In this document: positions 1-28,952 of the stretch, in pieces
Numbering within the stretch: the stretch's first letter is position 1
Layout: each line of letters begins with the position of its first letter
From: Squalus acanthias
Lineage: Eukaryota
Assembly (NCBI GenBank): GCA_030390025.1
Contig: JASTWF010000093.1
Location: 930,001 to 994,000, forward strand
Length of the DNA stretch: 64,000 bases
Direction of reading: 5' to 3'
Notes under the pieces: generated by a model
What the model saw: only the letters and a program-made list of their open reading frames with translations
The model's database searches: none
Told to the model about the DNA's origin: nothing
Translations under genes and position numbers: made by a program

Positions 1-230
1 TGCTCCTCCCCGATCCTTCCCCCCACCCCACACGATGCTCCTCCCCGATCCTTCCCCACACCCCACACGATGCTCCTCCCCGATCCTTCCCCACACCCCA
101 CACGATGCTCCTCCCCGATCCTTCCCCACCCCACACGATGCTCCTCCCCGATCCTTCCCCACCCCACACGATGCTCCGCCCCGATCCTTCCCCCCACCCC
201 ACACGATGCTCCTCCCTGATCCTTCCCCCC
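1..230. repeat. C-rich minisatellite, ~33-36 bp unit (tgctcctccccgatccttccccaccccacacga), runs off the window start
   Basis: About 6-7 tandem copies are directly visible. Confidence 0.95.
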
Positions 231-1044: not shown

Positions 1045-1975
1045 GCATAGAAGATAGGAGCAGGAGTAGGCCATTCGGCCCCTCGAGCCTGCTCCGCCAT
1101 TTAATGAGATCATGGCTGATCATCCAAATTCAGTACCCTGTCCCTGCTTTCTCCCCATATCCCTTGAACCCTTTAGCCTTAAGAAATATATCTATCTCCT
1201 TCTTGAATATATTTAATGAATTGGCCTCAACTGCCTTCTGTGGTAGAGAATTCCACAGGTTCATAACACTCTGGGTGAAGAAATTCCTCCTCATCTCAGT
1301 CCTAAATGGCTTACCCCTTATCCTTAGACTGTGATCTCTGGTTCTGGACTCCCCCGCCATCGGGAACATCCTTCCTGCATCTAGTCTGTCTAGTCCTGTT
1401 AGAATTTTATAAGTTTCAATGAGATCCCCTCTCATTCTTCTAAACTCCAGCGAATATAAGCCTAATCGACCCAATCTCTCCTCTACCACCTTTTTTAAAT
1501 AGTGGGGTTACATTAGCTACCCTCCAATCCATGGGAACTGTTCCAGAGTCTATAGCATTTTGAAAGATGACCAGCAATGCATCTACTATTTCTAGGGCCA
1601 CTTCCTGAAGTACCCTAGGATGTAGATTATCAGGCCCTGGGGATTTATCGGTCTTCAATCCTGTCAATTTCCCTAACACCATTTCCCTACAAATACTGAT
1701 TTCATTCAATTCCTCCCTCTCATTAGACCCTATGTTCCCTGACATCTCTGGGAGTTTATTTGTGTCCTCCTTTGTGAAGACAGAACCAAAGTATGTATTT
1801 AATTCGTCAGCCATTTCTTTGTTCCCCATTATAAATTCCCCTGATTCTGACTGCAAGGGACCTACGCTTGACTTCACCAATCTTTTTCTCTTCACATATC
1901 TATAGAAGCTTTTACAGTCAGTTTTTATGTTCCCTGCAAGCTTACTCTCATATTCTATTTCCCCCCTCTTAATTG
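1045..1975 (-). mobile_element. CR1-type LINE fragment (ORF2 middle and 3' end, internally deleted)
   Basis: KSPGPDNLHPRVLQE...DWRVANVTPLFKKG and LGLYSLEFRRMRGDLIETYKI...RRNFFTQ motifs, plus the CR1-type 3' tail. Absent from the right arm. Confidence 0.9.
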
Positions 1976-2464
1976 AGGGTATCCACCTGACCTGGATCAC
2001 GATCCTCATTTAACATCCACACACACACACTCTTTCCAGCACGGGTGACGGGCAGTGATCAGGAATGGGAAACCTGACTGACGTCTTGCAGCCAGAGCCA
2101 AATGTAGAGCCCCACTATTGGCCTTGCTCAGATCAGCTAACTCAGCATAGACCTGGCATCATCCAAGTCAGGACTAAATTGTTCATTTTAAATCCGAGAT
2201 TGATAGATTTCTGTTAACCAGGGGTGTTACGGGATGTGGGGCAAAGGCGGGTATATGGAGTTAGGTCACAGATCAGCCATGATCTCATTGAATGGCGGTA
2301 CAGGCTCGAGGGGCCTGTTTGAATATTTAAACGGAACCTTGCTCTAACACTGTGATATTTTAAATGAAGTAGTATGATGATTCCTCCTAATGTTTTAAGC
2401 AGCTCTGGATGGCTAGTGTGAAGATCCAGCACCACTAATAATGTAAAGGAGGATGAAAATTTGG

Positions 2465-2925
2465 ATTACATAGGATATACAGCACGAAACAGGCCATTCG
2501 GCCCAACCAGTCCATGCCGGCGTTTATGCTCCACTCGAGCCTCCTCCTGTCTTTCCTCATCTAACTCTATCAGCATAACCCTCTATTCCCTTCTCCCTCA
2601 TATGCTTATCCAGCCTCCCCTTAAATGCATCTATACTATTCGCTTCAACCACTCCCTGTGGTAGCGAGTTCCACATTCTCACCACTCTCTGGGTAAAGAT
2701 GTTTCCTCTGAATTCCCCATTGGATTTCTTGGTGACTATCTTATATTGATGGCCGTGAGATTTGCTCTTCCCCACAAGTGGAAACATTCTCTCTGTGTCT
2801 ACTCTATCAAAACCTTTCATAATTTTAAAGACCTCTATTAGGTCACCCCTCAGCCTTCTCTTTTCAAAAGAGACCCAGCCTGTTCATCCTTTCCTGATAG
2901 GTATAACCTCGCATTTCTGGTATCA
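2465..2925 (-). mobile_element. CR1-type LINE 3' fragment
   Basis: FDRVDTERMFPLVG...FTQRVVRMWNSLP...AFKGRLDKHM. Confidence 0.85.
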
Positions 2926-5223
2926 AATTTAAATTTGCGACTGACTGACTTCTGTTTCTCCACAGATGTTGCCTGACCTGCTGAGTAAGTCCTGCTTTTT
3001 TTCTGTTTTTGTTTCATGAAGAATTTTTAAGCCATGAACGAACAGTTAACAGCTCCCCAGGCACAGATGGAAAGCAAGAGAGCAAGTCACCCTGGACTGG
3101 TCTCAACCGCCACCTGCTGGTCATTTACAAAACAGCACTGACAGGAAGTGTGAGCAGATTGCCTCTTTACTGTGTGGAACATAGGAACAGGAGGAGGCCA
3201 TTCAGCCCCTCGAGCCTGTTCCGCCATTCAATGAGATCATGGCTGATCTGTGACCGAAAATGTTGGCAGTGAGGATCCCAGTGTTTTTCTTTTCCATGAT
3301 TAGCTGCTGTGAGTTCTACACCATGTATTGTTAGAAATTGGGATTCACGGAGTTACATAGAGTCTACAGCACAGAAACAGGCCATTCGGCCCAACTGCTC
3401 TATGCCGGCTTTTATGCTCCATGCGAGACTCCTCCCACCCAGAGGATTTGAACAATTATATTCATCACTGCGTGAGGAAATGATTGTATGTTGGCCTCAG
3501 TCTGTGCTGCTTCAGGAGACAGATTTAACTGCAAAATGTATTCAGTTTCAAGGTTGAAATTCCATGAACCAAAGCTTGGAGTGGACAGTGCCAAAAACAG
3601 AGGGAAAAGCTAGAGTTTAAAAAAAAAATGGGAATATTCAACCACAACACACAAGAAAGTGGAACCATGACAGGAAAGTAGTAGAGTGGGCAGTGCAGGG
3701 CATTGGTTTCTTTCACACCATGACCAGTCCCCCCCTTGCTCCCATCACGTGGTTCTTTCTCTCCTTCCGTTCTTTCATAAACTTCTCCCATCGGCTCTCT
3801 CTGGTCTGCAACTTCAATTGCTTAGGATCCTTTTTGTGAGAATAGGCGCTCGTCTCGTGATTTATTTTGAGCCACATTGTTCTCGTGTCTCCTCCCAAGT
3901 TGTCAGCTTAAGAACATAACAAATAGGAGCAGGAGTCGGACACACAGCCCTTCCAGCCATTCACTATCACGGCCGATCTTCTACATCAACTCCACATTCC
4001 CACCCGATCCCCATATCCCTTGGTTCCTTTAGTGTCCAGAAATCTATTCAACGACTGAGCATCCACAGCCCTCTGGGGTAGAGAATTCCAAAGATTCACA
4101 AATTTCCAAATAAGTGCACCCTTTGTGTGGCTTGTATCGATGAGGACGAGACAAGCTTGACTTTAGGTTGAACTTTTTGCTGGTTCCAGTAGTGGTTCTG
4201 GGGAACCGGTATGGAGTAACCACTTTAGCCTGGGTAGGGTTAGTAGTGCTGTGGGGTTTGCATCTTATAGGTGCATCAGAGTGTCATTTCACCCTTAAAC
4301 TTATAAGGTTCTTAATTTAAAGTCAGTTTTGTGTAGTGTTACAATGCAATCTTTTTAAAACAGTACTCTGCACTAGTGCCATTCCGAGTCCACCCACTTT
4401 GACCCAAAAATAGGGTCTGGGAGTAGCAATGGGTTAGAGCATGGTTCTTTTGGAGGTCATCTGCTGCTACAGCTGACATAGCCAGTATATAACAGCCATA
4501 CTAAGAAGGCCCCAGGTTCAATTCCTAATTGGAGTAACGTGCTACAATTCCCTTAGTGCCCCAGATTGACGGGGAAGAATCAGACTCGGATGTGGTTTCT
4601 AGCTCCCAGTGTTTACTGTGTGTGGAACACTGATCCTCAAAATACCCTCAGTCAGTGTCTCAGCTCACAGACAATTGCCAGGAAATTCTTTGGGGTTTTT
4701 CACCACCCCCAACACACAGTGCCGCCTTAACTTCAGCAGCAGTCAGATTACGTAGGAAAATAGGGTTTCCAAAGTTATGGCGGTGGAGCGGAGAAGGCCC
4801 GAAGAAATTCACAGCACAACTGTTAAACTAAAGGAGGACAGGGTGCTAAAATAACTAAAGCAATTCTTGGAGACAATGACAAAAGAAGAAAATAGAATTA
4901 AATACAAAGCTTTATTGCATTAAGCTGTCCTGGTCCAGCAGAAGATGACCAATCCTGGTCCAGCAGAAGTTGAACAAAAAACACTATTGTATTAAATAAG
5001 AGTTTGGAAGTTACAAATGAGAAAAGGGACCAATCAGATGGCACTTGTTATTCTGTGTGTTGATATTTAGTAGTGAGGGTTAAGGAGACGTGTCCACATT
5101 TGCACAAGGCTGCGAATAGCAGTAACCCACGATGTTGCGGCAATAAATATCGGTTTTCATGGCTGAAGGGGCAGCGTCCAATCACATGCATTTTCTTGAA
5201 TGATCCATCACGTAATGCCGTGT

Positions 5224-5348
5224 TCATTTTGTTTCTCCATTTGCCAGTGAAGCACGTTTCTTGCACACGGCTATGACTAGAATTAAAATTATAAATTCAA
5301 TAGCAAGGACAGTGACTGCAAGCATCCAGCGATTTCTTGTTTTCATTT
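5224..5348 (-). pseudogene. Copy A exon 4 (TM and short cytoplasmic tail)
   Basis: ttccacag|AA ATG AAA ACA AGA AAT CGC TGG...; translates EMKTRNRWMLAVTVLAIEFIILILVIAVCKKRASLANGETK*. Has a 15-nt in-frame deletion relative to copy B. Confidence 0.85.
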
Positions 5349-5439
5349 CTGTGGAAAAAAAAGGGAAGAACACTATTGATCATTACGGCAGTGGTTTCAG
5401 TGCTGGTTTGGTCTTCTATGCTAAATCAGCCAAAAAAAG

Positions 5440-5868
5440 CCCACACATTTACACAGCGCCTTTCACAACCCCAAAGCGCTTTACAGCCAATGAAGTACTT
5501 TAAGTGGTCACTGTTGTAATGCAGGAAACGCAGCAGCCAATTTGCACACAGCAAGATCCCACAAACAGTAATTAGATAATGACCAGATAATTATTATTAT
5601 TATTTTTTTTTAAAAAGTGATGTTGAAGGATACTAATGGGGACACTGGAGAGAACTCCCCTGCTCTTCATAATAGTGCCATGGGATCTTTTTCGTCCACC
5701 TGAGAGCAGACAGGGCCTCGGTTTAACGTCTCATCTGAAAGGCGGCACATCCGACAGTGCAGCACTCCCTCAGTATTGTGCTGGAGCGTCAGCCTAGATT
5801 TTTGTGCTCAAGTCTCTCAAGTTGGGCTTTAACCCACGACCTTCTACCACTGATGCATGGCTGACACC
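5440..5868 (-). mobile_element. tRNA-derived SINE, DeuSINE/SacSINE1-like
   Basis: tRNA-like head plus a core shared by many copies in the window (29990-30453, 31175-31490, 37776-38090, 38508-38975, 46325-46745, 55436-55656, 60289-60495). Family name is from recall. Confidence 0.7.
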
Positions 5869-5869
5869 T

Positions 5870-6270
5870 AAAGAGAGATATTAGGCGGGGTGACTAAAAG
5901 CTTGGTCAAAGAGGTGGATTTTAAGGAAAGTTTTAAAAAAGGAGAGAGAGAGAGAGAGAGAGAGAGAGGTTTAGGGAGGGAATTCTGGAGCGCAAGCTAT
6001 AGATGGCTGCCAGTGGCAGGGCAATGGCAGTAGGGAATTCACAAGATGCCAGAGTTGGAGCAATGCAGAGGTCTCAGAGGGTTGTAGGGCTAGAGAAGGG
6101 TAGAGAGAGATTAGGAGGGACGAGGCCACAAAGGGACTTAACCACAAGGATAAGAATTTTAAATTCGAGGTGTTGGTAACCAGGAGCTAATGTAGGCCAG
6201 TGAGCACAGGGAGAGGGTTAGCAGATTGTAGTGCAGGATAGGAGAAGGGCAGCAGAGATTTGGATGAGCA
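5870..6270 (-). mobile_element. L2-like LINE 3' fragment
   Basis: aaagcttggtcaaagaggtg...ggtttagggagggaattc motif recurs at 29830-30750, 38390-38500 and 56300-56600. Confidence 0.6.
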
Positions 6271-6733
6271 GAAGTTTACATAGCGTGGAGGGTACAATAC
6301 AGCATAGAGAGAAAACTTCTTATATCCTCTCCAAGGAGCGAGGGAGACATTAAGGAGAGTCTTCGCAAATATGGGAGCAGTATCCAAGTCACAAAAGGAC
6401 TCGAGCTATAGAGAGTTAAAGGTATTTGGTGAGAAGTGTTTGGCACAAACGAGGAAACAGCTTTTGAGCAGCCGAGCAATGCAGCAGCTCCATTTGTGGT
6501 CTTGGGAGATAGTGAGGCCAAGAACATTGATAAGTCAAGAAGTGTAGGCCCATGAAAGTTAAAAAGGTGCAGTGGTTTATACTTGTGGAACCAGAGACTG
6601 GAACAGAAGTTTCTGAAGAACTGAAAGAAGATTTCCTTTACTTCAAATGGCATGGAGATCAAGATGTCGTGATTCAGCATTGTATCGCAAGACAACTGGA
6701 GGTTATGAGTACTGAGTGTAGGACACAACTTAC

Positions 6734-7008
6734 CTACAGAAAGACCAAATGTTCGAGAAACTGATTGGTGTAGAACATCATTTCTTAATCTGAATGTGTA
6801 GTTAGAACTCCTATTGGTGTCATTGATTTTCAGAATACTCTGCAGGGAGTATAGACCATCTCCACTTTGTTGGTACGAAGTCTCAGACAGTGTAGAAATA
6901 TCCTCATTTTCTTCATTGTACCAGGAAACAGTAGCCTCAGGGACTCAAATCTGAACACTGTCCCAGATGGTGTTAACTGAATAAAAAAGTCAGGTTCCTT
7001 GTAGTATG
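6734..7008 (-). pseudogene. Copy A exon 3 (IgC-like) with a 10-bp deletion
   Basis: ctacag|CA TAC TAC AAG GAA CCT...GTA G|gtaagt. Reads gagtcc^ctgagg where copy B has gagtcccaaggttaccctgagg. Confidence 0.9.
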
Positions 7009-7169
7009 CTGTAGATTAAAAAAAGGGTCATTAGAAACAAGAAATAAACTTGATAAAAATAATGCCAACTAGGAATTTTGTTCCAGTTAATAACTAATTG
7101 AAAATTGCAATAAAAGCTTTAAATGATCAAAAACAACAAATCCAAGTACAAACAGAATAGTAGATATTG

Positions 7170-7262
7170 TTCTGATGAAAGGTCATCGACCTGAAACGTT
7201 AACTCTCTTTCTCTCTCCACGGATGCTGCCTGGCCTGCTGAGTTTTTCCAGCGTTTTCTGTC
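7170..7262 (+). mobile_element. Short Penelope-type terminal-repeat insertion with an 11-bp TSD (agtagatattg)
   Basis: TSD at 7159-7169 and 7263-7273; empty site in the right arm (~43352); carries a CTGATGA...GAAA hammerhead core. Confidence 0.8.
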
Positions 7263-7700
7263 AGTAGATATTGCTGTTTGTGATCAATTTGGAGATATTC
7301 AAATCATTATACCAAGTGATCAAGTTGAAGGTGAAAATCCCACAATATCCTGCTGGCAGCTGTTCAGCCAAAATCATACGTAACCCTTGATGGTAAATAT
7401 CAGTGGGCTTTTCACCTGCGAGGCCATCACAGTTCAGCCCGATCCTGGAGCCGTCCACAGGCAGGGCTTGCTGAATAGCAAACGGGATTGCCAACCCTAA
7501 CCGAGGTTTGTCGATTGCACCAATAGCACTGCTCCAGCTGAGAGGAGCTAAACCAGCAGAGTCTGGGCATCAAACATGGTCTGTACGGCTCAGGCACTCA
7601 ATAGTGAGACTCACTGAGCCATCAGGGGAGGCCAAGAAGCATGACTTTAATTTTTCAGAACTGACTGAGAACAAAAATGAAAACTGAAAGAAGCATGTAC

Positions 7701-8051
7701 CTGCAAATATTAGAGACACAATGCCCTGGCCATTTCCTTTTCCGTTCCTGACAAAGCACACATACTGTCCAGCATCCTCTGGTCTCACTCTGTCCAGCTT
7801 CACTGAAACGTTCCCTTGTTTTAACTCCTCTGGGAATAAGCTTGCCCTCCCCGAATACCGAGGGCTTTGGCGACTCAGTTGCTCTTTTCCAGAATAATAA
7901 TAAACAACTTCCTCCGTCTCGACACGGTGCCAACTGATGAACAGCAGATCCAGTGACGATTCACCCCGAGCTGTAAAGCTGCAACTCAGCACCGTGTACT
8001 GGCCGTAGACAGCAGTCACTGGTGCTTCTGGGGTGTGGACTTGAAACTGAG
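7701..8051 (-). CDS. Copy A exon 2 (IgV domain, open)
   Basis: QFQVHTPEAPVTAVYGQYTVLSCSF...ISWH...RASLFPEELKQGNVSVKLDRVRPEDAGQYVC: a B7-type IgV with canonical C/W/C; 351 nt, phase 1-1. Confidence 0.9.
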
Positions 8052-8339
8052 CTGTGAATTCAAACAAATAGATTAGTAACAGCATTGTTCCAAGAGATTT
8101 AATCTTAACTCTTCAGAACATTTTATTTTAAATGGATGATTAATACGAGATTTATTCTTGAACACAGGAAAGCACTAAGAAGTAATTATCCCCACAGCTG
8201 TAATTTCTCTTCTCCTGAATGGTTGATATTTCCTGGGTTGATATTTTCTGTGATCTATTGAAATAGAAAAAGTTTTGTTCCCTCACCTCACAAAATGGAC
8301 ATCAAAAAAAGTAACTGCAGCAACATGATCAGTAAACAT

Positions 8340-9894
8340 CACAAAATAATGGGACTAAAAGACGACAGGTCCCCTGGACCAGATGGCCTGCATCCCAGGG
8401 TCTTAAAAGAAGTGGCTGCAGAGATAGTGGATGCATTGGTTGCAATCTACCAAAATTCCCTGGACTCTGGAGAGGTCCCAGCGGATTGGAAAACCACAAA
8501 TGTAACACCCCTATTTAAGAAAGGAGGGAGACAGAAAGCAGGAAACTATAGACCAGTTAGCCTAACATCTGTCGTTGGGAAAATGCTGGCGTCCTTCATT
8601 AAGGAAGCATTAGCAGGGCATTTGGAAAATCAATGCAGTCAAGCAGAGTCAGCATGGTTTTATGAAAGGGAAATCATGTTTAACAAATTTGCTGGAGTTC
8701 TTTGAGGATGTAACGAGCAGGGTGGATAAGCGTGAGCCAGTGGATGTGGTGTATTTGGATTTCCAGAAGGCATTCAATAAGGTGCCACATAAAAGGTTAC
8801 TGCATAAGATAAGAGCGCACAGAGTTGGGGGTAATATATTAGCATGGATAGAGAATTGGCTAACTAACAGAAAGCAGAGAGTCGGGATAAATGGGTCATT
8901 TTCCAGTTGGCAAACGCTAACTAGTGGGGTGCCACAGGGATCGGTGCTGGGGCCTCAACTATTTACAATCTACATTAATGACTTGGATGAAGGGACCGAG
9001 TGTACTGTAGCTAAGTTTGCAGAAGATACAAAGATGGGTGGGAAAGTAAGTTGTGCAAAGGGATATAGACAGGCTAAGTGAGTGGGCAAACATTTGGCAG
9101 ATGGAGTATAATGTGGGAAAGTGCAAGGTTATCCACTTTGGCAGGAAAAATAAAAAAGCTAGTTATTTTTTTAAATGGAGATTACAAAATGCTTCAGTTT
9201 AGAGGGACCTGGGGGTCCTTGTGCATGAAACACAAAAAGTTAGCATGCAGGTGCAGCAAGTAATCAAAAAGGCAAATGGAATGTTGGCCTTTATTGCAAG
9301 GGGGTTGGAGTATAAAAGCAGAGAAGTCCTGCTACAACTGTACAGGGTATTGATGAGACCACACCTTGAGTACTGCATACAGTTTTGGTCTCCTTATTTA
9401 AGGAAGGATATACTTGCATTGGAGGCAGTTCAGAGACGATTCACACAGTTGATTCCAGAGATGAGGGATTGACTTATGAATAAAGGTTGAGCCTATACTC
9501 ATTGGAATTTAGATGAATGAGAGGTGATCTTATTGAAACATACAAGATACTGAGGGGGCTCGACAAGGTAGATGCAGAGAGGATGTTTCCCCTCGTGGGG
9601 AAATCTAGAACTCCGGGGCACAGTTTCAGAATAAAGGGTCGCCCTTTTAGAACCGAGATGAGGAGGAATTTCTTCTCTGAGGGTCGTAAATCTGTGGAAT
9701 TCTCTGCCCCAGAGAGCCTCGGAGGCTGGGTCATTAAACACATTTAAGGTGGAGATAGACAGATTTTTTACAAGATAAGGGAGTGAAGGGTTATGGGGAG
9801 CGGGCGGGGAAGTGGCTTTGAGCCCAAGATCAGCCATGATCTTATTGAATGGCAGAGCAGGCTCGAATGGCCAAGTGGCCTATTCCTGCTCCTA
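8340..9894 (+). mobile_element. 5'-truncated, frameshifted CR1 LINE (RT and 3' end)
   Basis: SPGPDGLHPRVLKE, NYRPVSLTS, YLDFQKAF, GVPQGSVLGP, degenerate FAED. Mirrored at 40700-42290. Confidence 0.92.
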
Positions 9895-10029: not shown

Positions 10030-10807
10030 GGAAAAAAGCAGGAAATGGAACAGATTTTTAAGCAAGTGTAGGGGCTGGGAAAGGGGGGAGGGGATGAAAG
10101 AACAAAAGGGAAGGTCTGTGATAGGATAGAAGGCAGGAGAGGTTAAGAGACATTAAGAGATATTCAAGGCAAAAGGAGATGGTAATGGGACAGGTTAAGA
10201 AACAAAGGATGGCTCTAGATGAAGTGTAAATTGCACTGGCAGAATGAAAGACAGCTGCCATGTGGGGGAGAAGAAAAGACAAAAAGGTGTGGATAAAAAA
10301 TATATATAGGATAGGGGCTGAGGTTATGATCTGAAATTGTTGAACTCTATGTTGAGTCCAGAAGGCTGTAAAGTGCCTAATCGAAAGATGAGGTGCTGTT
10401 CCTCGAGCTTACGCTGAGCTTCAGTGGAACAATGCAAGAGGCCGAGGACGGTGAGGTCTGAGTGGGAGTGGAGCAGAGAATTAAACTGACAGGCGACCAA
10501 AAGCTCAGGGTCCCCCTTACGGACTGACCGGAGGTGTTCCGCAAAGCGGTCACCCAATCTGCGTTTGGTCTCCCCAATGTAGAGGAAACCACATCGTGAG
10601 CAGCAAATACAGTATACTAAATTGCAAGAAGTACAAGTAAATCGCTGTTTCACCTGGAAGGGGTGTTTCGGGCCCTGGACAGTGGGAAGGGGGGAGGTAT
10701 AAGGGCATGTGTTGCATCTCCTGCACTTGCACGGGAAGGTGCCGGGTGAAGGGGAAGGGGTGCTGGGGGGTGATAGAGGAGTGGACTAGGGTGTCTCGGA
10801 GGGAGCG

Positions 10808-12499
10808 TGTAGAATTCGCAATATATCGCGATTTTATTAATAAGGAGAAGAACACATAGTTTCGTTCAAACAGCTTTTATTTCAGCAGAATGCTGTCAGG
10901 TTTTCAAAGTGGACACAAGCAGCTTGTAAAATGGCCGCCACGCCTCGTGGCGGAACATTCCAGATTTTTCGATAGGCAGACAAGATGGCGTTCCAATAAA
11001 CATTTGTGCAAGATCGATCAAGACTCAGCACATTTAAGATAATACACGAGACATCATGGGTTTACAGTATACACATAAATACTGAAATCGGTCTCCCAGG
11101 TGCGAATAAGGGCTATTGTACCAAGTAATCAAGGACCCATCCAAAGACATTAATATGTAAAATCCCAACGACTCTACGATGAGAGAGCCGTTAGCGGGTA
11201 GTTACAGAAAACATTTGGAAGCCCCAAAACCCCTCCAGGGAGAACACCGACCGATTAAACAATGGGAGAAATATTAACAGGTACTCAGACAATTACGAGT
11301 ATCCCCGAAACCCATTAAAACGGAGATCACCCTATACAAGAAATTTGAGCGCCAAACCCTAACAAAAGAAAAGACATTAAGGTTGGGCGGGAAAAGGAAG
11401 ATTTTGCACTATAATTACAAGCTCCAAACCGTCCATCTTTCTCTTATTCGGTTGACTCTTATCCTGCTGGCGTTTATCCTCGTGGCTGCTCTTGACTCGC
11501 CGTCTTGTTCCTGTTTGCCTCGTGTCTCTTTTCAAAAGACTGTTGAACTTTACGATCCGCTCGGATCTACCTCGTGGCGTGTCGCGAAGACCTGTGTAGA
11601 ACTGGGCTCTGAAGCCTTGAAGCGGGCGCACCATCCCGATAAGTCGGTAAACGGTGTTGGAACCGAAGGCCCGAGATGAGATGAGATGAGATGAGAAGAG
11701 AAGAAGACCATACTTATCGCCACGGTCAGTAAGCTCCGACCGCGCCTGTAGGTCGAATAGACACTTTCCTTGCCCAGGAAGACTTCTTTTGAGTTCTACA
11801 GAACTGGCACAGGAAGACTATTTTTCAAATTTTATCAGTGCGAGGGCAAAGGAAGACTCTTCTTTGAGCAGTGTCGGAACTCCGAGGACAACACAGATCT
11901 TCATGACAGCAGACGTTCCAGCCTGCTAGCCGGAGCAGAAACGAGTAAACAAGTGGGGTACGGAGACCCCCTGATCGACACGTGGGTGCTGCGGTGAAAA
12001 ACATCCGATCAGAGTTTTCGGAATTCTCCGAGTTATCACGAGTGGTGAGCATGAGTCTCGAATCCTACGAATCTAGCTTAGGACAGATATTGATAGGGGA
12101 GGGTTTTAAGTATTAAGGATAATTGTAATGTGTGCCCCCATTTACGATGTGTCGTTCGTTCCTCGTTTCCCTGAAATTAGTCACATAACTGCGTGTAAGA
12201 TTGTACTGTCATTAATCTGTGCTTATGACATGTATTTCATAATCTTAAATAATATGCAATAAAGATTTTCCATTTCGTACCATTCAACCGAGTCTACCTG
12301 AGTTTTATCTCCATTACTGCTCTCGCATCTAAGTCCAGTGTCAGAACCGTAAGGGCGAGTGGGTCGAACCACTCACAGGTGTCTAGTGCTCCCAGGCTGG
12401 CTGGAGACCAGAACAGGCAACAAGGCCTAAACTCGCACTAGCATCCAGGCTGCACAGAGCCACACGAATCTCACAGGTTGAGAGACAAAAACCCTTACA
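10808..12499 (+). repeat. 5' LTR (1692 bp)
   Basis: Starts tgtaga, ends ttaca; AATAAA at ~12258; direct repeat of 18523-20219. Confidence 0.95.
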
Positions 12500-12503
12500 G
12501 AAA

Positions 12504-14309
12504 ATAGCGACCGCGGCACGAGGCTGGCAGCGAGAGGGTAATGTGTTAGACTTTGGTATGAATGTACGAAATGTCATGCAAGAGAAAATAGCAGATTATG
12601 TGTTCGGAAAAGTAAATTTGACTAAGAAATGGATAAGTGACCTGCTAGTGGATAAGTGTCCACTAGAGGCAGCCGAGAGGTGGACAGATAGCAAGGAACA
12701 TAAAAAGACAGTCGAGAAAGTGGTCTGGTTAATGTGTTATAAGAGACAAGTCCAAATTTCAAACCAGGTCATTACAGCGCAAACAGCTCGGATCAGGCAT
12801 TTAGAGGAGGAAATGGATGAGAAGGTCTCTGGAGGGGAGTTGCTCATTAGGAATTTAAGTGCGCTGCACCGAGAACGCCAGGAAATCACCAGTCACCATA
12901 AAGCAAAAATAGATTACCTCGAGTGCCAGGTCACTGAGGCAAAGTTAAGTGAGGGCAGACTAAAGGAACGATGTGCCCGCCAAGCTGCCCAAATAAAAGC
13001 CCAGGAAGAGAGCTTAACGGGGGTTAGGGCGGCATATAAGATGGCCTTTGAGGATAAGTTTCAGGGGGCCGATCACAGCGTCTGCCAAAAAGAGATAGAG
13101 CACCTTAAAAGGGCCGTGAACAAAGCGCACGGCATGGTGTGTCTTATCAGTCCGTCAGCACACCAGCCACTAGTAGAAGAGGAGTTTCAGAAATTCCCAC
13201 CAAGTAAAGCAAAGGAAGTATTAGCCACTACGCCCTCCGCGCCACCCAGCTATTCGGAAACCTGGGTAAGGGAGGAAGTAGTAGAAGAAACGAAAGAGCC
13301 CACTGAGGGAGAAGTGGAAAAGGGACCGTTGTGTCCGGTTACGGGTACCAAAAGGGGCCCGAACGGAAACGGTGGGGAACAAGGGGATCTCCTCAACCAG
13401 CTTGTGTTGCCTCACAGCTCACACCAGCTGAGGGTTATGATAAGTCACGTACGGAAGCTGACCGAGGCAGACGACCCTTCCGTACATTTCAGGGAAGTTG
13501 AGCAAACCGCAGCCATTAACGGCTGCGACGATGGGGAAACAGCAAAGATGCTGTTATTTTCGTTAGGCAGTTCAATCCTTCAGTGTCTCTCGGACGAGAG
13601 CAAGAGGGGAACCAAGAACTATGAGGCATTAAAAAATGAGGTCCTAGAAGTATTGGGGACGGACGATGAAGGTCCGTTTGTTAGAGTGGGACAGACAGTG
13701 CAGATGGAGGGAGAACCCCCGAAGGTTTTCGCCGACAGGCTGTGGCCAGTATATCAGCGCAGCTGCCCAGGTGCGCCAGAGCGCGACGCTGTGGACGGCA
13801 TCGGTTTAACTCATTGGCTTAGGTGTATAGTAGCCAACAGTTTGCCAGCCGTCAGAGAGCAGGCAAAAGCGTGGTTTGATCCCACTGACCCCAACATTAC
13901 GGAAGAGTCGGTCTTAAATCGACTCACGGTAGGATACCGTAATATCAGGGGTATGGGAACACGTCCCCTTGAGGGAAAAGTACATGAGGTACGACCCGCA
14001 GCCCCGGCTCAAAAGGAGTGGCATCAGGAGGGTAACCGCGCCCCGCAGGCCAGTAATGCTTGTTACGGGTGTGGGAGGACAGGGCACTGGCGCAAGAACT
14101 GCAGGAACCCTTGGAAGGATTCCAGGGATAAAAATCCCGCAGCCCGAGCCCAGATGCCTGTCTCTGTTAGGGAAGCTAGTGCACCCACCCCTCCCGACGA
14201 CCTCGAAACAGTGTTGGGAGCCATGCGCAACTTCATGAGTGCGCATGGAAAAGTGGCGGTTGCTACCGGCCCCGTAGGTGCCACAGGCCCGTCTAATAGT
14301 ACCCAATGA
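12504..14309 (+). CDS. gag: Gag-like protein (N-terminal coiled coil, capsid-like region, one CCHC knuckle); probable original start at 12504 is now ATA, next ATG at 12558
   Basis: Open frame; CYGCGRTGHWRKNC at 14061-14102; PSAPPSY late motif; position directly after the 5' LTR. Confidence 0.88.
   Translation: MATAARGWQREGNVLDFGMNVRNVMQEKIADYVFGKVNLTKKWISDLLVDKCPLEAAERWTDSKEHKKTVEKVVWLMCYKRQVQISNQVITAQTARIRHLEEEMDEKVSGGELLIRNLSALHRERQEITSHHKAKIDYLECQVTEAKLSEGRLKERCARQAAQIKAQEESLTGVRAAYKMAFEDKFQGADHSVCQKEIEHLKRAVNKAHGMVCLISPSAHQPLVEEEFQKFPPSKAKEVLATTPSAPPSYSETWVREEVVEETKEPTEGEVEKGPLCPVTGTKRGPNGNGGEQGDLLNQLVLPHSSHQLRVMISHVRKLTEADDPSVHFREVEQTAAINGCDDGETAKMLLFSLGSSILQCLSDESKRGTKNYEALKNEVLEVLGTDDEGPFVRVGQTVQMEGEPPKVFADRLWPVYQRSCPGAPERDAVDGIGLTHWLRCIVANSLPAVREQAKAWFDPTDPNITEESVLNRLTVGYRNIRGMGTRPLEGKVHEVRPAAPAQKEWHQEGNRAPQASNACYGCGRTGHWRKNCRNPWKDSRDKNPAARAQMPVSVREASAPTPPDDLETVLGAMRNFMSAHGKVAVATGPVGATGPSNSTQ
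12505..12521 (+). promoter_or_regulatory. Primer binding site, tRNA-Arg(UCG)-like, with a TGG>TAG mismatch
   Basis: tagcgaccgcggcacga versus TGGCGACCGCGGCAGGA (complement of a vertebrate tRNA-Arg-TCG 3' end, from recall): 15/17 match, 5 nt after the LTR. Confidence 0.7.
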
Positions 14310-15416
14310 CTAGAGCCCACGCAGCCTGCCTACCTGTGTCCTTTTAAAAGACACGCACAGGAGGGGGTCTCCTGTGAGGAGACCAGGTTAAAAGAGCAGG
14401 CCTTGCGGGAGGAGAACGCCCGTTTAATAGGGAAAATAGATGGGCTAGAAGGGCAGCTTAGAGAGCAGGCCCTGCGGGAGGAGAACGCCCGCTTAATGGG
14501 AAAGTTAGACGTGCTCAGGCTAGAAGAGCAGCTTAGAGAGATAAAAGCAGCCTACAAGGTAGCCAGAAGCAGGGATTTAAACCAGTGCAAACTGTACAAG
14601 CCAGGTGCACAAGGGAAAACCACAGGGGCAAAACATGCGAGTGGGGACTCGCAGCCCCAGGTAGGACCACAAGGCACACAGGCAGGCAGAGCAGCTTGCA
14701 TCAGGGAAGGAGGCATCCTGGAAAATTGTGAAACATTTTTGTGGGGTTGGGAGTCAGATGAGGGAGAGTTCCAGGAACTCGACGAAGATGAGGATAGTGA
14801 TGAGGACGAATGGGAATCGGAGGACGCAAGGGTCGCCCCCGATTCAGGTATAGGGAGGACAGGGGCTGCAGATAGAGATCCACACAGGGTGGACACCGAG
14901 GCTGCAGGTCCCGAACACAGGAGGGAGGAGCTAGGGGAGGTGGAGCCAGCCACTGTGGGACCACAGGGCGTGACGGTGGAAACCTCAGAGCCCGAGCCGC
15001 CCGCCTTGAACGTCCTGCCCTCGGGGGAGGTAGGGATTGCGAGTGAAGGGCCGCCTGCTGGGCCGAGCAGGGCGGTGCCACAAGCTGCAAGTCCCGAGGT
15101 CAGGGAGGCGGAGTCAGGGGAGGCGGAGCCAGCGACTGTGGTGGGACCACAGGTCGTCCCGGTGGAAGTCTCGGAACCCGGTCCGTCGGTCCTGGGATTC
15201 CTGCCCCCGACAACTCCTCGTAGGTCAAATCGGGCACCCCAGCCCAGGAAAATGTGGTCATGTCCCCAGACTGCCCCAAGGCGCAGGCTCAAGGTTAAGG
15301 CAGCCCAGGAAGGGCCCAGTCCCATCGCAGCAGCAACAGGCTGCGGCAGATCAAAGGAAGGGGTCAGTGCCCTCCCACCGTCGGAAAGAGCTCACAGCAG
15401 CCTTCTCAGAATTTAA
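14310..15416 (+). CDS. ORF X: coiled-coil, acidic and Pro-rich protein of unknown function, in-frame with gag behind a leaky stop
   Basis: 368 open codons directly after TGA-CTAG, in the gag frame; no catalytic Pol motifs. Confidence 0.7.
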   Translation, partial: LEPTQPAYLCPFKRHAQEGVSCEETRLKEQALREENARLIGKIDGLEGQLREQALREENARLMGKLDVLRLEEQLREIKAAYKVARSRDLNQCKLYKPGAQGKTTGAKHASGDSQPQVGPQGTQAGRAACIREGGILENCETFLWGWESDEGEFQELDEDEDSDEDEWESEDARVAPDSGIGRTGAADRDPHRVDTEAAGPEHRREELGEVEPATVGPQGVTVETSEPEPPALNVLPSGEVGIASEGPPAGPSRAVPQAASPEVREAESGEAEPATVVGPQVVPVEVSEPGPSVLGFLPPTTPRRSNRAPQPRKMWSCPQTAPRRRLKVKAAQEGPSPIAAATGCGRSKEGVSALPPSERAHSSLLRI

Positions 15417-15721
15417 AGGGGCCGCCCTGGGAACGGGCGGCGCTGTACAGTAATAAGTTTAGGATAAGTTTTTAAGTTCATAGTTTAAGGTTAAGTTTTA
15501 GATAAGTTTATAGTTTTAAATCAGGTTAAGTTTGTAGTTTAATTTTAACAGAAAATGGTAAAATGATGGGAGTTTTAGAGATAGGTTTAGTTAAAGTTTA
15601 TCCAGCGAACATTGAAGTTTACGTGAGGCGAGGTCAGGGGACCCGCTCACCCTTCACAAAAGCCAGAGACTCTTGCGAGGCTGGCTACCTCATTCTATCT
15701 GATCACAGGAACCAAGGAAGG

Positions 15722-18073
15722 ATGGAACGAATTCTAGTATTGCTCGCGGCAATCGGATGTGGATTGGCCTATCGAGGCCGCACCAAAGATGTCGTGGTGT
15801 TTGGATGCTCCGGAGACACGGCCCCCATCGCGGTGGATGGGACCGGAAGACGGGAGGCTGAGGAGACCACCACCTATTTCCACAAGGGAAGGTGGCCAGG
15901 ATGGCTGGGAACGAACTCAACGGAGTATTCCAGCACATCGGGGTTTGCCTACCAAGAGACTTCTTTAATGTGCCCCAAAGTAAGGATCATCGCACCCAGG
16001 ATCAGCGTCACCGTCGGCAAACGGATTTGTTTGACTTGTAGTAGGAATGTCCCATTGAGCCGATGGTGGTGGCTGCGAAAGCTGAGCAGAAACATGAGGA
16101 ACTCTTCGGTCGAGTGGGAACGACTGGGTAATAATACCCATCGGACAATTACGGGGACAAACGGACAAGTGAGGGTCTGTTGGGACAAATGGTGGGAACC
16201 GGATGAGGGAATTTATGTATGCATGTGGGGTTCAAAGTACGCTTGCCCCAAAGGCATCTCCATATTTTTCATTAATCAATGGCAGGATAATGGACAGGGG
16301 ATGAGGTGGGATGCGAGCACCAGAGGGTGCGGAGCCCCATACTCTTCGATCCCGGTAAATGCCACTGAACTCATTACGCGCCCACGCAAAGCCCCGCCCA
16401 CGATTCCGGTGGTTCTAGCTAAAGAGGAAGGGTGCCCTAAAACCAGTAAGGGACCCGGGAATGGTTTGGTACTGGTCCCCACAGACCAGATACTATTTCA
16501 GGGGGTACATTACGCGGTGGCCTCGGTGATTTTAAATCTCACCGAGGTACGGTTACCAGAGTGGTGCCCCAAAAAGACGGAACAGTTATATCAGGTCCTG
16601 TTGACCAAGATGTTCAGACAATTTTACGAATTCGATTTCGCGGAAATTGATAAAACAAGTTTGTACACTGCACCACATGAAGTTTTTGATCAAGTGGGGA
16701 GGCAAAGAAGTGGTGTAGTGAACGACGCGTTCACTGCTTTTAACACGGGTACATCTGTGGTCAACGCTCTAGACAGTGTGGAGCTGCAGACCCAGATTAA
16801 TGGTTTAAAGACGCAATTAAAAGACATTCTAACAGATGAAAATAAAGTGGTTGGGTCGGGTTTACACGAGGACCAAACCATGACTCTCCATTTAAAGGAA
16901 ATTATAGCAGAGCTAGAGAAACATGCAAAGACGGTAAATGCCCTGATTAGGGAAGATCGGAATGCATCCGATCAAGCTGCGCAGAAGGAGGTGTGCGTGC
17001 TTTACGGGGCGTGGTTACTGGGCGAGGGCCGCAGTAATTTGGAGGATTTAAAACAAGGTTTGGTCCCGTCCTGGATAAGTAACAAACACCTGCGGGCGCT
17101 CCACCCTTTTCAGAACGCATTAAGCCCGTGCCAGCTCAGGCTAGCTTCAGAAGCATACCCAGTCCCCGTGGACTGCGGACGATCAAACCATACCATTATG
17201 GGTATAGTACTACGTATGCCGGTTTTGGGCGACACAGCAAAGCCCGCCCCGGTGTATCGGGTAGAGAACATTGGTGTCATTCAGGGGGGAGCCCACATTC
17301 GCTATGCAGCGGTTCCACCCTACGTCATCCGCTGGGAGCAAACGATGACAGGTACAGATCTCTCTGGTTGTCGTGGCAGGGGAGCACACATAATACTGTG
17401 TCCCCAGCACTTGAATGCCTTTTTAACACCACAGTGCGGGTTCAGAACGGCTGGCGCCAAGTCCATGAATTGCACCATGGAGGCAATGGCACAAGATCAT
17501 GTGCCTCCGCAGGTAGCATACATCGGGGGTGGAACATATTGTGTTACCACTGCAGCGCAACACTACCAGCATGGAAACCGTAGCCGGTGTCCGGTGAGTG
17601 ACAGCAGTTTCTGTTTCAAACCCAGGGCGGAAGTTCAAGTAGCACAACAGCGAATTGTCCCAATCCCTGAACCATCCACTGTTCATCTAACAGTAAAAGA
17701 GAATTTCACCGACTTGCAGCGATTCGTCGCGCATTTCGGATACCTCATTCCCCCTCTCCCTGAACACCTCACCAAGCTTTTAAAAGCCGTCGCGGTGTCA
17801 CAAAAACATTTTTACACACTAGAGCAGAAAACTGTCGAAATAGGGACAGACATTCTGGATATAGTAATTCCACCGTGGTGGAATCTGTTCACCAATATTG
17901 AAGTACCGTCCTGGATCAGAATAGCCTCCCACATTTTAGTTGTATGCCAAGTTTTTATTGTAGTGTACCTGTTGGTCGTACATTGTAAGAGAGGCAAACG
18001 CCTCACCAAGCACGAAAACACGGGAGAGTGGCGAGAACGTTACGTGCGCGTGCACGATGAAAGCACCGTGTAA
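15722..18073 (+). CDS. env: Env-like type I membrane glycoprotein (783 aa), F-type class I fusion protein-like, with an N-terminal Ig-like domain
   Basis: Signal peptide MERILVLLAAIGCGLA; RQRS/G then a fusion-peptide-like stretch and heptad repeat; Cys-rich region; several N-X-S/T sites; C-terminal TM ILVVCQVFIVVYLLVV. Confidence 0.85.
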   Translation: MERILVLLAAIGCGLAYRGRTKDVVVFGCSGDTAPIAVDGTGRREAEETTTYFHKGRWPGWLGTNSTEYSSTSGFAYQETSLMCPKVRIIAPRISVTVGKRICLTCSRNVPLSRWWWLRKLSRNMRNSSVEWERLGNNTHRTITGTNGQVRVCWDKWWEPDEGIYVCMWGSKYACPKGISIFFINQWQDNGQGMRWDASTRGCGAPYSSIPVNATELITRPRKAPPTIPVVLAKEEGCPKTSKGPGNGLVLVPTDQILFQGVHYAVASVILNLTEVRLPEWCPKKTEQLYQVLLTKMFRQFYEFDFAEIDKTSLYTAPHEVFDQVGRQRSGVVNDAFTAFNTGTSVVNALDSVELQTQINGLKTQLKDILTDENKVVGSGLHEDQTMTLHLKEIIAELEKHAKTVNALIREDRNASDQAAQKEVCVLYGAWLLGEGRSNLEDLKQGLVPSWISNKHLRALHPFQNALSPCQLRLASEAYPVPVDCGRSNHTIMGIVLRMPVLGDTAKPAPVYRVENIGVIQGGAHIRYAAVPPYVIRWEQTMTGTDLSGCRGRGAHIILCPQHLNAFLTPQCGFRTAGAKSMNCTMEAMAQDHVPPQVAYIGGGTYCVTTAAQHYQHGNRSRCPVSDSSFCFKPRAEVQVAQQRIVPIPEPSTVHLTVKENFTDLQRFVAHFGYLIPPLPEHLTKLLKAVAVSQKHFYTLEQKTVEIGTDILDIVIPPWWNLFTNIEVPSWIRIASHILVVCQVFIVVYLLVVHCKRGKRLTKHENTGEWRERYVRVHDESTV

Positions 18074-18510
18074 TCGGAAAATGGCGTCACTCCCGCTTGC
18101 CACGTGCGCCTCGGAAGTGTTGTACTCGATCGTGATTTTTTCGGAAACTGTAAATACGTTTGGAACTCGACATGTTTTAAGAGTTGGTGTTGATTATTTT
18201 GGTGATGGTGTTGTAGTTAAAAATGATTGTTTGGTTTTGTTTTGTTTTTCCTTTTCCCTAAATAAAAAGATGAATATACAGGTGATACGAGAGGCATCGG
18301 CCTGGTTACGCCTGGAAGGAAAACAAGTGGTGTAAGTTTGAAGGCAAATAATGCCTACGGTGCTATAAAATGTAATTTTCTTGGGAAATAAGGACGACGC
18401 AAGGACCCTAGATAGTTTAAGTTATGGGATTAATTTTCTGGATCTGGAGAAATCGAGATAATATTGCTCACCACTATATTTTTGATACGATAAGCGGAGT
18501 TATTCGCATC

Positions 18511-18522
18511 AACAGGAGGGAC
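18511..18522 (+). promoter_or_regulatory. Polypurine tract
   Basis: aacaggagggac immediately before the 3' LTR. Confidence 0.7.
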
Positions 18523-20219
18523 TGTAGAATTCGCAATATATCGCGATTTTATTAATAAGGAGAAGAACACATAGTTTCGTTCAAACAGCTTTTATTTCAG
18601 CAGAATGCTGTCAGGTTTTCAAAGTGGACACAAGCAGCTTGTAAAATGGCCGCCACGCCTCGTGGCGGAACATTCCAGATTTTTCGACAGGCAGACAAGA
18701 TGGCGTTCCAATAAACATTTGTGCAAGATCGATCAAGACTCAGCACATTTAAGATAATACACGAGACATCATGGGTTTACAGTATACACATAAATACTGA
18801 AATCGGTCTCCCAGGTGCGAATAAGGGCTATTGTACCAAGTAATCAAGGACCCATCCAAAGACATTAATATGTAAAATCCCAACGACTCTACGATGAGAG
18901 AGCCGTTAGCGGGTAGTTACAGAAAACATTTGGAAGCCCCAAAACCCCTCCAGGGAGAACACCGACCGATTAAACAATGGGAGAAATATTAACAGGTACT
19001 CAGACAATTACGAGTATCCCCGAAACCCATTAAAACGGAGATCACCCTATACAAGAAATTTGAGCGCCAAACCCTAACAAAAGAAAAGACATTAAGGTTG
19101 GGCGGGAAAAGGAAGATTTTGCACTATAATTACAAGCTCCAAACCGTCCATCTTTCTCTTATTCGGTTGACTCTTAACCTGCTGGCGTTTATCCTCGTGG
19201 CTGCTCCTGACTCGCCGTCTTGTTCCTGTTTGCCTCGTGTCTCTTTTCAAAAGACTGTTGAACTTTACGATCCGCTCGGATCTACCTCGTGGCGTGTCGC
19301 GAAGACCTGTGTAGAACTGGGCTCTGAAGCCTTGAAGCGGGCGCACCATCCCGATAAGTCGGTAAACGGTGTTGGAACCGAAGGCCCGAGATGAGATGAG
19401 ATGAGATGAGATGAGAAGAGAAGAAGACCATACTTATCGCCACGGTCAGTAAGCTCCGACCGCGCCTGTAGGTCGAATAGACACTTTCCTTGCCCAGGAA
19501 GACTTCTTTTGAGTTCTACAGAACTGGCACAGGAAGACTATTTTTCGAATTTTATCAGTGCGAGGGCAAAGGAAGACTCTTCTTTGAGCAGTGTCGGAAC
19601 TCCGAGGACAACACAGATCTTCATGACAGCAGACGTTCCAGCCTGCTAGCCGGAGCAGAAACGAGTAAACAAGTGGGGTACGGAGACCCCCTGATCGACA
19701 CGTGGGTGCTGCGGTGAAAAACATCCGATCAGAGTTTTCGGAATTCTCCGAGTTATCACGAGTGGTGAGCATGAGTCTCGAATCCTACGAATCTAGCTTA
19801 GGACAGATATTGATAGGGGAGGGTTTTAAGTATTAAGGATAATTGTAATGTGTGCCCCCATTTACGATGTGTCGTTCGTTCCTCGTTTCCCTGAAATTAG
19901 TCACATAACTGCGTGTAAGATTGTACTGTCATTAATCTGTGCTTATGACATGTATTTCGTAATCTTAAATAATATGCAATAAAGATTTTCCATTTCGTAC
20001 CATTCAACCGAGTCTACCTGAGTTTTATCTCCATTACTGCTCTCGCATCTAAGTCCAGTGTCAGAACCGTAAGGGCGAGTGGGTCGAACCACTCACAGGT
20101 GTCAAGTGCTCCCAGACTGGCTGGAGACCAGAACAGACAACAAGGCCTAAACTCGCACTAGCATCCAGGCTGCACAGAGCCACACGAATCTCACAGGTTG
20201 AGAGACAAAAACCCTTACA
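18523..20219 (+). repeat. 3' LTR (1697 bp)
   Basis: Differs from the 5' LTR by about 8 substitutions and one extra ATGAG unit (counted by eye). Confidence 0.95.
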
Positions 20220-21032
20220 AGCGGTCCCTACGGAATGCTGAAAGGGGAGGTGAGGGGAAGATGCGTTTGGTGGTGGGATCACGCTGGAGGTGGCGGAAAT
20301 GGCAGAGGATGATCCGTTGAATGTGGAGGCTGGTGGGGTGAAAGGTGAGGACAAGGGGAACTCTATCGTGGTTCCGGGAGGGAGGGGCAGGGGTGAGGGC
20401 AAAAGTGCGGGAGATAGAACGGACACAGTCGAGGGCTGTGTCAACTACGGTAGAGGGGAATCCTCGGTTGAGGAAAAAGGAAGACATGTCGGAAGCACTG
20501 GTATTCCCAACCCCTACACTTGCTTAAAAATCTGTTCCATATCCTGCTTTTTTCCAGTTCTGACGAAAGGTCATCGACCTGATACGTTAACTCTGTTTCT
20601 CTCTTCACAGATGCTGCCTGACCTGCTGAGTATCTCCAGCATTTTCTATTCCTGCTCCTATTTCTTATGTTCTTATGTAAATAGACAGGGGCTGTTTCTT
20701 TGAAATATTCTTTTCAGCTCCATGAACAATATTTACTTGGGAATTATCCACCTTGCCCATTAAAATTACCCAACATCACAAGTGAAACCCTTCGGTCCCA
20801 GACCTGAAACGTTAACTCTATTTCTCTCTCCACGGATGCTGCCTGACCTGCTGAGTATTTCCAGCATTTTCTGTTGTTATTTCAGATTTGCAGCATCTGC
20901 AGTATTTTGCTATTACAAGTGAAACTACTGTTATTGCTTTGGGCCATTGCTCAGTGGTGAAAAGACCACCTGAAACTGTGTAGATCGTTCATTCTAATGT
21001 GTGCAAGGAAACAGTTACATTTAAAGACTTAC

Positions 21033-21333: not shown

Positions 21334-22204
21334 CAGACACTGCCCCGCGAGCCAGCGAATCAGAGACTGGTTAGAGCTTTTCCTCGGCAGTCCCGCCTCC
21401 CCAGGGCTGCCAGACCATGCCACAGACACCGCAGCAGCAGCAACAACCTAGTGGTTGCTGTTTTTAAGAGTTTATTTTTTACTGTGATGGAATGAGAAAC
21501 AGCCTTACAGTAATTTGTTAATCTATTTGTAAAATGTTATTATTGCATTTATATTGTTAATTATAAGGCTTTATTGTTATTGTGATCAATGAATGTAATG
21601 GTTTATTATGTAATTGATGAGTTGTATAAGTACTATTCTTGAATAAAAAGATTAACAAGAAAAAAAAACAACCTAGTGGTTAAAAGAAAAAAAACCTTTT
21701 CTTTTGAGAATTTCCCTCATCTGGAAGTGGAAATATTTCATTTTAACACAGCACATTTAAGTTGCACAACCCATAAAGACATTTGACTGTGCAACTAAAA
21801 TCATGTAAATTATCTTGGCAATTGGCTGCACTGAAATCAGTCAGGCATTACTAGTTAGTGTACAGTTATTGAAGTGCCATTGACTAAAGGCAAACTAATT
21901 GAAGATTCTTTTGCTTGTGGTTAAAATGTCATAGTGTACTGATCCTGTCAGCAAAAGTAACTGGTGTTTTGCTGCAGTGTAACTTAAATAGCCATAAAAA
22001 GTGTCTTTATGGAGGATATTCGTGGGAAACTACAAGGATATGAAGATGTTTACAGCTTTTTGTATTACCTGAAATAGTTATGGTTCCTCACTGCAACAGT
22101 TTGATAACCAGGATATATGTAATAAAATAACTGAATACACATCCACAAGACTTGCACCAAAATGTCAGACTTTCTGTGAAAGTGCTCTTTATACAAAACA
22201 TCAG
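21334..22204 (+). repeat. 871-bp direct duplication, copy 1 (flanks Tx1)
   Basis: Near-identical to 28953-29823 with a constant offset of 7619. Confidence 0.95.
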
Positions 22205-22811
22205 AAGAAGAAAAGAAGAGGGCCGGAAGATCCGAGGGGTGTGTGTGTGTGTGGCTTTTGAAAGAACTAGGCCGCACACACCACTAATTAAACACCCCTT
22301 CCCATTGCCTGACCTGGGCCAGCTGGAGCTGCCTAGGTGAAGTCCCCCAACTCAATTAACCTGATTGGGGCATCGTTAAGACCTGGTGCAGGACTGAGCC
22401 TGGGCATCTCCAGCTTTCCCAGGTGAAGACATCTTCTCCCCCCACCAGAAGACCACCGGAAAGGACTCTAATTTACATCGGAGAGTGCACCCCCTGCCAA
22501 CACCCACCCAACCACCATCCTGAGTGGCGACCCTGCCCTTGCGGCTTCCCTCCTTCCCACCCCCTCTCTCTCTCGCTTTGTCTCTTGTCTCTCTCTGCCT
22601 CTCTCTCTAAGAGGCACCTCATTAAACTTTTAATTAAGTACCCATTGAGCAGAGGGGAGAAGGCCCCTCTCCTAATTAATTCATATAAAGGGAGAGGTGT
22701 GCTTCAATTTAAGAGCTCCCTCTGCTCAGGGAAAAAAAAACAATACCAAGGCCATTAACACCTTCAGGCCTGTGACTTGGGGTGAGTGTAGCCCTTAAGG
22801 ACCAACCCATC

Positions 22812-24962: not shown

Positions 24963-24987
24963 GTAGAGGTTGCACTATGCTTCTGAG

Positions 24988-28887: not shown

Positions 28888-28952
28888 TTTGTTAAGTTTC
28901 CTTTAAAGTTTTATTTTAGTTACAGTTACGTTATTGGTTTGATCAAAATAGT

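Follow-up and report, generated by a model that had tools for sequence, protein, structure and literature searches.

Why does a retrovirus-like element in which no enzyme domains are found carry a long open reading frame (ORF) directly behind the stop codon of gag? The element lies in a window of 64,000 nucleotides from Squalus acanthias (assembly GCA_030390025.1, contig JASTWF010000093.1, positions 930,001 to 994,000 of the forward strand), whose numbering is used throughout. Its gag ends in CAA TGA CTAG (14304-14313, with the TGA at 14307-14309 and the CTAG at 14310-14313) and the same frame then runs for 368 stop-free codons to a TAA at 15414-15416, an open run, here called ORF X, expected by chance with a probability of ~2e-6 at the local base composition. 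TGA is followed by CTAG in 3 of the 991 TGA triplets on the plus strand of the window. The first ATG past the gag stop in this frame is at 14496, codon 63. An initial annotation had described this junction, the open frame and the position of the ATG, all of which are confirmed here, and had proposed that a UGA-CUAG readthrough signal fuses Gag to ORF X. The ~970-residue fusion that it envisaged requires a start directly behind the 5' long terminal repeat (LTR), which is present in frame with the gag stop in 46 of 57 copies examined and absent from the window copy; here Gag has 583 amino acids from the ATG at 12558 and the fusion 952. In 52 of the 57 copies a gag ATG is found no more than 12 bases from where the 5' LTR ends (12500-12520), overlapping the expected primer-binding site, and this too is missing from the window copy. 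Judged from its sequence, the window copy derives from a lokiretrovirus-like endogenous retrovirus of a cartilaginous fish and is both young and non-autonomous, and the TGA-CTAG is very probably the ordinary gag-pol readthrough site of the enzyme-bearing helper form. The pattern of variants among copies indicates that the reading frame of X is under selection, its amino acids barely so.

The origin of ORF X is revealed by its relatives. Twenty of the 69 copies found by Gag protein alone were fetched for comparison, and most of them carry ~3.6 kb extra between the gag stop and X residue 90. The extra sequence encodes protease, reverse transcriptase (RT), a tether RNase H, RNase H, integrase and an SH3-like end (seven frames scanned, six with pol domains), and pol in these relatives starts in frame at the same TGA-CTA as ORF X. 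On DNA alignment the frame behind the stop begins and ends as pol (Table 1), the inherited pol tail making up 279 of the 368 residues of X. The insert between the two matches the coiled-coil region of Gag when taken in the longer form found in older copies (34%, E 5e-13); about half of this longer insert is deleted in the young group. Its best matches to other Gags reach only 44-46% over ~70 residues, or 55% over 42, which suggests that the donor is a gag that was not sampled, and no donor was found among the Gags compared. The possibility that X is a novel non-enzymatic gene was ruled out by the DNA identity to pol ends and the similarity to Gag, and its description as a distinct gene is not upheld, X being a pol remnant joined to a gag fragment and mostly neutral at the amino-acid level. 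No relative of X in another species was seen at E <= 1 among 94 candidates of 188-601 amino acids, which is not evidence of absence. The Pol of the family has, beyond integrase, an acidic low-complexity tail of ~280 residues with mostly in-frame insertions and deletions (indels) and a ratio of non-synonymous to synonymous substitution rates (dN/dS) near 1. A short RRS-x-R-x-PQP motif in this tail is present also in the most divergent tail.

The context of the stop is shared widely. Genome-wide, 2014 of 2062 pol-type stubs have TGA-CTA(A/G), with a stub pattern that also picks up a few X copies, while the 1303 X-type stubs divide into 990 with TGA-CTAG, 284 with TGA-CTGG and 29 others. Among 50 position-ordered X copies, drawn like all such samples as the first exact pattern matches on contig C1 and hence biased to young copies, 38 have TGA-CTAG, ten TGA-CTGG, one TAA and one TGG. 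The proposal that a Gag:Gag-Pol switch has been retained is thus supported by the enzyme-bearing relatives, in which pol follows in frame behind the same stop context, and conservation of TGACTAG and of the frame among copies is borne out by the X stubs and by the frame-keeping shared indels described below. A sense codon at the stop position, which the initial annotation had named as contrary evidence, was seen in only one of 100 position-ordered copies.

Further evidence comes from the codons that follow the stop. For the 23 codons between the stop and the first Met of pol, the shared variants in 59 pol copies are 16 synonymous and 4 non-synonymous, which argues that they are translated. We take these codons to be part of the protease fold, by homology to HIV protease, so that an internal start would be insufficient for pol. 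The post-stop variants CTAGAG, CTAAAG and CTAGAA have no AG position in common, which disfavours a splice acceptor. The element is covered piecemeal by contigs of four RNA runs, and the 15 of 22 joints listed include no canonical splice joint into X, a result that is uninformative. Folding of the RNA past the stop had been suggested as a check. The junction of the window copy does fold, at a z of -3.15, but those of relatives range from +0.4 to -2.6, pol-type junctions have a median z of -0.06 and X-type junctions one of -1.5, and no two-sided compensatory pairs occur among the listed pair types. With fold strength so inconsistent among relatives, conservation of a stimulatory RNA structure could not be established.

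The site would work like the gag-pol readthrough of gamma- and epsilonretroviruses, with a signal of the alphavirus type. In Moloney murine leukaemia virus (MoMLV), as in walleye dermal sarcoma virus (WDSV), an in-frame stop likewise lies between the zinc knuckle and the protease DTG and sets the Gag:Gag-Pol ratio; these viruses use UAG, with a pseudoknot in MoMLV, whereas the family studied here uses UGA (PMC13517186). The stop contexts of aquatic retroviruses listed in the available part of this 2026 review are UGAAGA, UGACGA, UGAAGU and UAGGGC only, with no UGA-CUA. The seven-nucleotide core is instead that of the alphavirus and vertebrate type II signal UGA-CUA(G), reported to drive efficient readthrough in human cells (PMC4132726; 10.64898/2026.07.14.738498). 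According to the same sources nearly all changes to CUAG reduce readthrough, CUAA is tolerated in one gene and the CU at +1/+2 was found essential by mutational scan; the variants of the family, CUAG, CUAA and CUGG, all retain it. Unlike the alphavirus and vertebrate cases, UGA-CUA here gates a retroviral pol or its remnant, and the motif alone is no guarantee of efficiency.

The element is called lokiretrovirus-like on its layout, its dual RNase H and its junction motif. With lokiretroviruses (Wang and Han, PMC7947760) and zebrafish BHIKHARI (10.1101/2024.03.25.586437) it shares, as far as these sources were available, the LTR-gag-pol-env layout of the helper, a dual RNase H, a coiled-coil-like N-terminal half of Gag and pol-less non-autonomous copies. 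Gag, pol (protease, RT, RNase H and integrase) and env are all found between the LTRs of the pol-bearing relatives, the window copy being without the enzymes. The dual RNase H of the relatives consists of RT_RNaseH/RT_RNaseH_2 followed by RNase_H, and the best PDB matches are to gammaretroviral and foamy RT-RNase H. In the lokiretrovirus supplement TGACTAG could be read by hand in frame with the annotated Pol of four teleost sequences, Loki-Ofa, -Cne, -Pyo and -Sau; of its 17 TGACTAG matches these four, a minimum for such junctions, are at the gag end and 13 are in other places, while for one or more of the listed sequences the annotation gives a single Smc-Gag-Pol protein (PMC7947760). The text of that paper, as available, names no cartilaginous-fish host ('Chondrichthyes' has 0 matches), and neither in it nor in the available text of the Odin paper is there a mention of readthrough or a stop codon. 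Bik-1 is described as gag only (10.1101/2024.03.25.586437), whereas the defective form in the family studied retains env and an open remnant frame, and Pol in this family has the ~280-residue tail.

The X cassette is present in ~1,300-1,400 copies genome-wide, alongside ~2,000 enzyme-bearing relatives. A pattern search allowing at most one mismatch gave 1413 X-type and 2160 pol-type junctions, with 0 in reversed-pattern controls, and exact matches numbered 1158 and 1151, respectively. The cassette occurs on Gags that are 95-97%, ~70% and ~46% identical to that of the window copy, and on the last of these backgrounds has a different tail. X-type junctions are in places regularly spaced, by 7.7 kb on contig C1 (143.66-143.67 Mb) and by 6.4 kb on contig C3 (64.29-64.32 Mb), which suggests tandem proviral arrays.

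These copies allow selection on the frame to be separated from selection on the residues. Estimates of dN/dS were made with a codon model from codon alignments of open frames only, broken copies being dropped (57 X copies; 80 of 86 for the insert), and as tree-based estimates they are biased by recombination. A test comparing singleton with shared variants worked for gag, pol and env; in X it was distorted by misalignment, so codon alignments were used there. The frame is kept. In the young group (35 of 36 copies) each of the 11 indels shared within X has a length divisible by three, and in the older group (10 of 14 copies) five of six are in frame, as against 5 of 35 in three non-coding stretches (Fisher p 3e-7 versus young X). 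Five shared indels within the insert, which is confined to X, and the three insert junctions are all in frame; the corresponding probability, (1/3)^8 = 1.5e-4, is overstated owing to repeat periodicity and microhomology. These events are not attributable to the helpers, because homologous exchange with pol cannot supply them. The X tail has accumulated ~450 shared substitutions, 3.3% of which would be expected to be stops if unselected (open frames only). The residues, on the other hand, drift: the X tail has a dN/dS of 1.02 (56 sequences) and the insert values of 0.68 (44 sequences, p 0.04) and 0.63 (58, p 0.01), against control values of 0.48 for the 3' part of gag, 0.31 for the Gag coiled coil, 0.29 for protease and RT and 0.16 for integrase. 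X is open in 32 of 36 young and 3 of 14 older copies, and the last 368 codons of gag in 31 of 36 and 6 of 14. That X decays like gag after insertion gives no sign of selection at the level of the host.

An explanation that we hold to have about an even chance of being right is that selection mainly keeps an open frame behind the leaky stop, rather than the sequence of X, with a minor amount of Gag-X being made and the benefit falling in cis. In the autonomous form the UGA-CUAG would be passed by a few percent of ribosomes on their way from gag into pol. In the non-autonomous form a gag-derived coiled-coil piece has replaced the enzymes in frame, and the same leak would now yield minor Gag-X. 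Since the signal is unchanged from that of the helper, minor Gag-X is probably made; its packaging into particles, also foreseen in the initial annotation, would follow only if it is. Selection on the act of translation would account for a frame kept open while its residues drift. Ribosomes traversing X might sweep the initial 1.1 kb of a very long 3' untranslated region (3' UTR), limiting nonsense-mediated decay (NMD), or the nascent Gag-X might favour packaging of its own RNA with helper enzymes. MoMLV readthrough is reported to protect long-3'UTR reporter RNAs from NMD (PMC4917968), and the level required for protection to vary with distance to the RNA end (PMC5360307). The mouse intracisternal A-particle (IAP) 1Δ1 form, whose gag-pol fusion is reported to help in cis, is similarly non-autonomous, internally deleted and highly successful, with an in-frame gag-pol remnant (PMC6466679). 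In the present family, too, the enzymes are deleted, helpers are present in the genome and the frame is kept. The IAP 1Δ1 fusion, however, is described there as constitutive, with part of gag missing and no env, whereas in the window element Gag is whole, a leaky stop gates the fusion, a gag fragment of foreign origin is inserted and env is under purifying selection.

Several observations weigh against this explanation. Approximately 4.8 kb of RNA remain after the X stop, so protection from NMD would be partial. The weaker TGA-CTGG context is found in 22% of X stubs, indicating that an optimal stop context is not required for X copies to spread, although this class is mostly one older lineage and counts as roughly one event. 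When 58 X and 27 pol copies are placed on a tree, their tails are intermingled, a sign that recombination with helpers has occurred repeatedly, and most of the shared tail indels are found in pol-type copies too, so that part of the frame signal may be inherited from helpers in this way. The pol-type tail is also neutral (dN/dS 1.04, 14 sequences). X is broken in 11 of the 14 older copies, and among 50 unfiltered copies there is one shared premature stop, and just one, in two neighbouring old copies. The weak purifying signal in the insert, finally, would be compatible with a function of the protein as well.

Such a function is possible, though it seems a good deal less probable than selection on the frame. 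Gag-X would then be a functional minor protein whose coiled coil docks on that of helper Gag or Gag-Pol, drawing defective RNA or helper enzymes into shared particles, with the tail as a linker bearing one short basic motif. The persistence of the cassette on three Gag backgrounds and with different tails is consistent with this, as is the insert dN/dS below 1. The coiled-coil unit has been duplicated, not lost, and it is at X residues 21-60 that codons carry the fewest substitutions (0.4 per codon, versus 1-3 in the tail); R305, S306, P310, Q311, P312 and W316 do not vary among 56 open copies, a similar motif being present in the divergent tail. The shared variants of the insert taken alone (33 non-synonymous, 19 synonymous, p 0.36) are nevertheless indistinguishable from neutral, the distal insert has a dN/dS of 0.83 (13 sequences, p 0.70), and a genuine Gag coiled coil is far more constrained; the young group has moreover dispensed with about half of the longer insert, and most of X is inherited pol tail. 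It is more doubtful still that the cassette, stub plus coiled coil, is a self-serving module that moved between subfamilies down to 46% Gag identity, the helper's readthrough switch yielding a decoy Gag-X at Gag-Pol stoichiometry that captures helper Gag or Gag-Pol by means of a second Gag coiled coil. If true, this would amount to a satellite retrovirus equipped with a dedicated hijacking protein, under the control of an ancestral UGA-CUAG signal hitherto unreported in the lokiretrovirus clade.

X might instead be a neutral relic in a short genome that copies well, in copies too young for decay whose gag end and tail are renewed in frame by recombination with helpers, but this appears improbable. 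The LTRs are 99% identical, X is open in young copies about as often as the gag end, tails are refreshed from helpers, the weaker CTGG context has spread and the tail dN/dS is 1, all in keeping with a relic. The eight in-frame events of the insert and its junctions are not so accommodated, and the periodicity of the coiled-coil repeats weakens this objection without removing it. Least probable by some way is that X (or pol) is expressed with no readthrough involved, starting at the ATG at 14496 on a spliced RNA or one made from an internal promoter. Of 50 copies, 49 have a Met in or close to the last repeat unit, and a cryptic junction promoter is reported to have confounded reporter assays of the UGA-separated Candida element Tca2 (PMC2194720). 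Every shared X indel upstream of the ATG at 14496 nonetheless keeps the gag frame, and both the purifying selection on pol codons ahead of the first Met and the lack of an acceptor AG common to all variants argue against such a start.

The features of the provirus are collected in Table 1. The CCHC knuckle of Gag scores E 0.0024 against zf-CCHC in a Pfam scan, under the curated cut-off. The best named match of Gag is a skate protein, at 53% identity, and skates and sharks are the sources of the closest named proteins to the products of the element. Env shows a strong purifying signal among copies in the test of singleton against shared variants; a likeness to the F protein of paramyxoviruses and pneumoviruses, a lokiretrovirus trait, was not confirmed, as it has no Pfam match and no significant PDB sequence match, the predicted models are too poor for a fold search (pLDDT 33 and 30), and the sole match in the Atlas was an unnamed chordate cluster at 0.77.

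Table 1. Features of the provirus and of ORF X, in window coordinates.
Feature	Position	Strand	Evidence or remarks
LTR provirus	10808-20219	+	gag, ORF X and env between LTRs; no enzyme domains found
Target-site duplication, 4 bp	10804-10807 and 20220-20223		Flanks provirus
5' LTR (TG...CA), ~1.7 kb	10808..12499	+	99.06% identity to 3' LTR over 1707 aligned bases
gag frame	12387..14309	+	Coiled-coil-like N-half, capsid-like region, one CCHC knuckle; first in-frame ATG 12558
UGA-CUAG gag-pol readthrough site, inherited (putative)	14307..14313	+	Motif and conservation among copies; in frame in four lokiretrovirus sequences
ORF X part 1: first 11 codons of pol (start of protease region)	14310..14341	+	BLASTN match to pol-bearing copies ends abruptly at 14341
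ORF X part 2: coiled-coil fragment from another gag, 69-nt unit twice	14342..14577	+	Not in pol-bearing copies
ORF X part 3: last integrase residues, then the acidic Pro/Gly/Ala-rich tail at the Pol C terminus	14578..15416	+	96-98% DNA identity to pol 3' end of closest relatives
env frame	15530..18073	+	847 codons, stop to stop
3' LTR	18523..20219	+	Pairwise match to 5' LTR

A second copy ~670 kb away on the same contig, 100% identical across the 1601 bases searched, is a segmental duplication or an assembly duplicate. Elsewhere in the window, 21334-29826 is occupied by a non-LTR element, presumably Tx1/L1-like, which lies between two 874-bp direct repeats of 99.3% identity and has a CCHC ORF1 (22776-24962) and an endonuclease-RT frame (24967-28314). 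Owing to large nested inverted duplications of 94-99% identity (230-9766 versus 40843-50707 and 29974-33296 versus 35935-39125), the window is in large part a palindrome, of which only one arm contains the provirus and the non-LTR element. Tandem arrays of a GC-rich 38-nt unit (43961-45196) and, over a greater length, of a 29-nt unit (51576-54265) both yield spurious long ORFs.

No report of UGA-CUAG readthrough in the lokiretrovirus clade was found in the literature searched, subscription journals and Repbase being outside its scope. The present family and the four teleost lokiretroviruses together make UGA-CUAG a candidate for the gag-pol switch of a deep retrovirus-like lineage. The X copies form a natural experiment of more than 1,000 members, in which a frame behind a leaky stop stays open while the amino acids drift. 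It becomes testable in this way whether RNA stability or cis preference, and not the supply of enzymes alone, may be what retroviral readthrough is retained for; and were X to prove a functional decoy, it would represent a new way for defective retroviruses to exploit their helpers.

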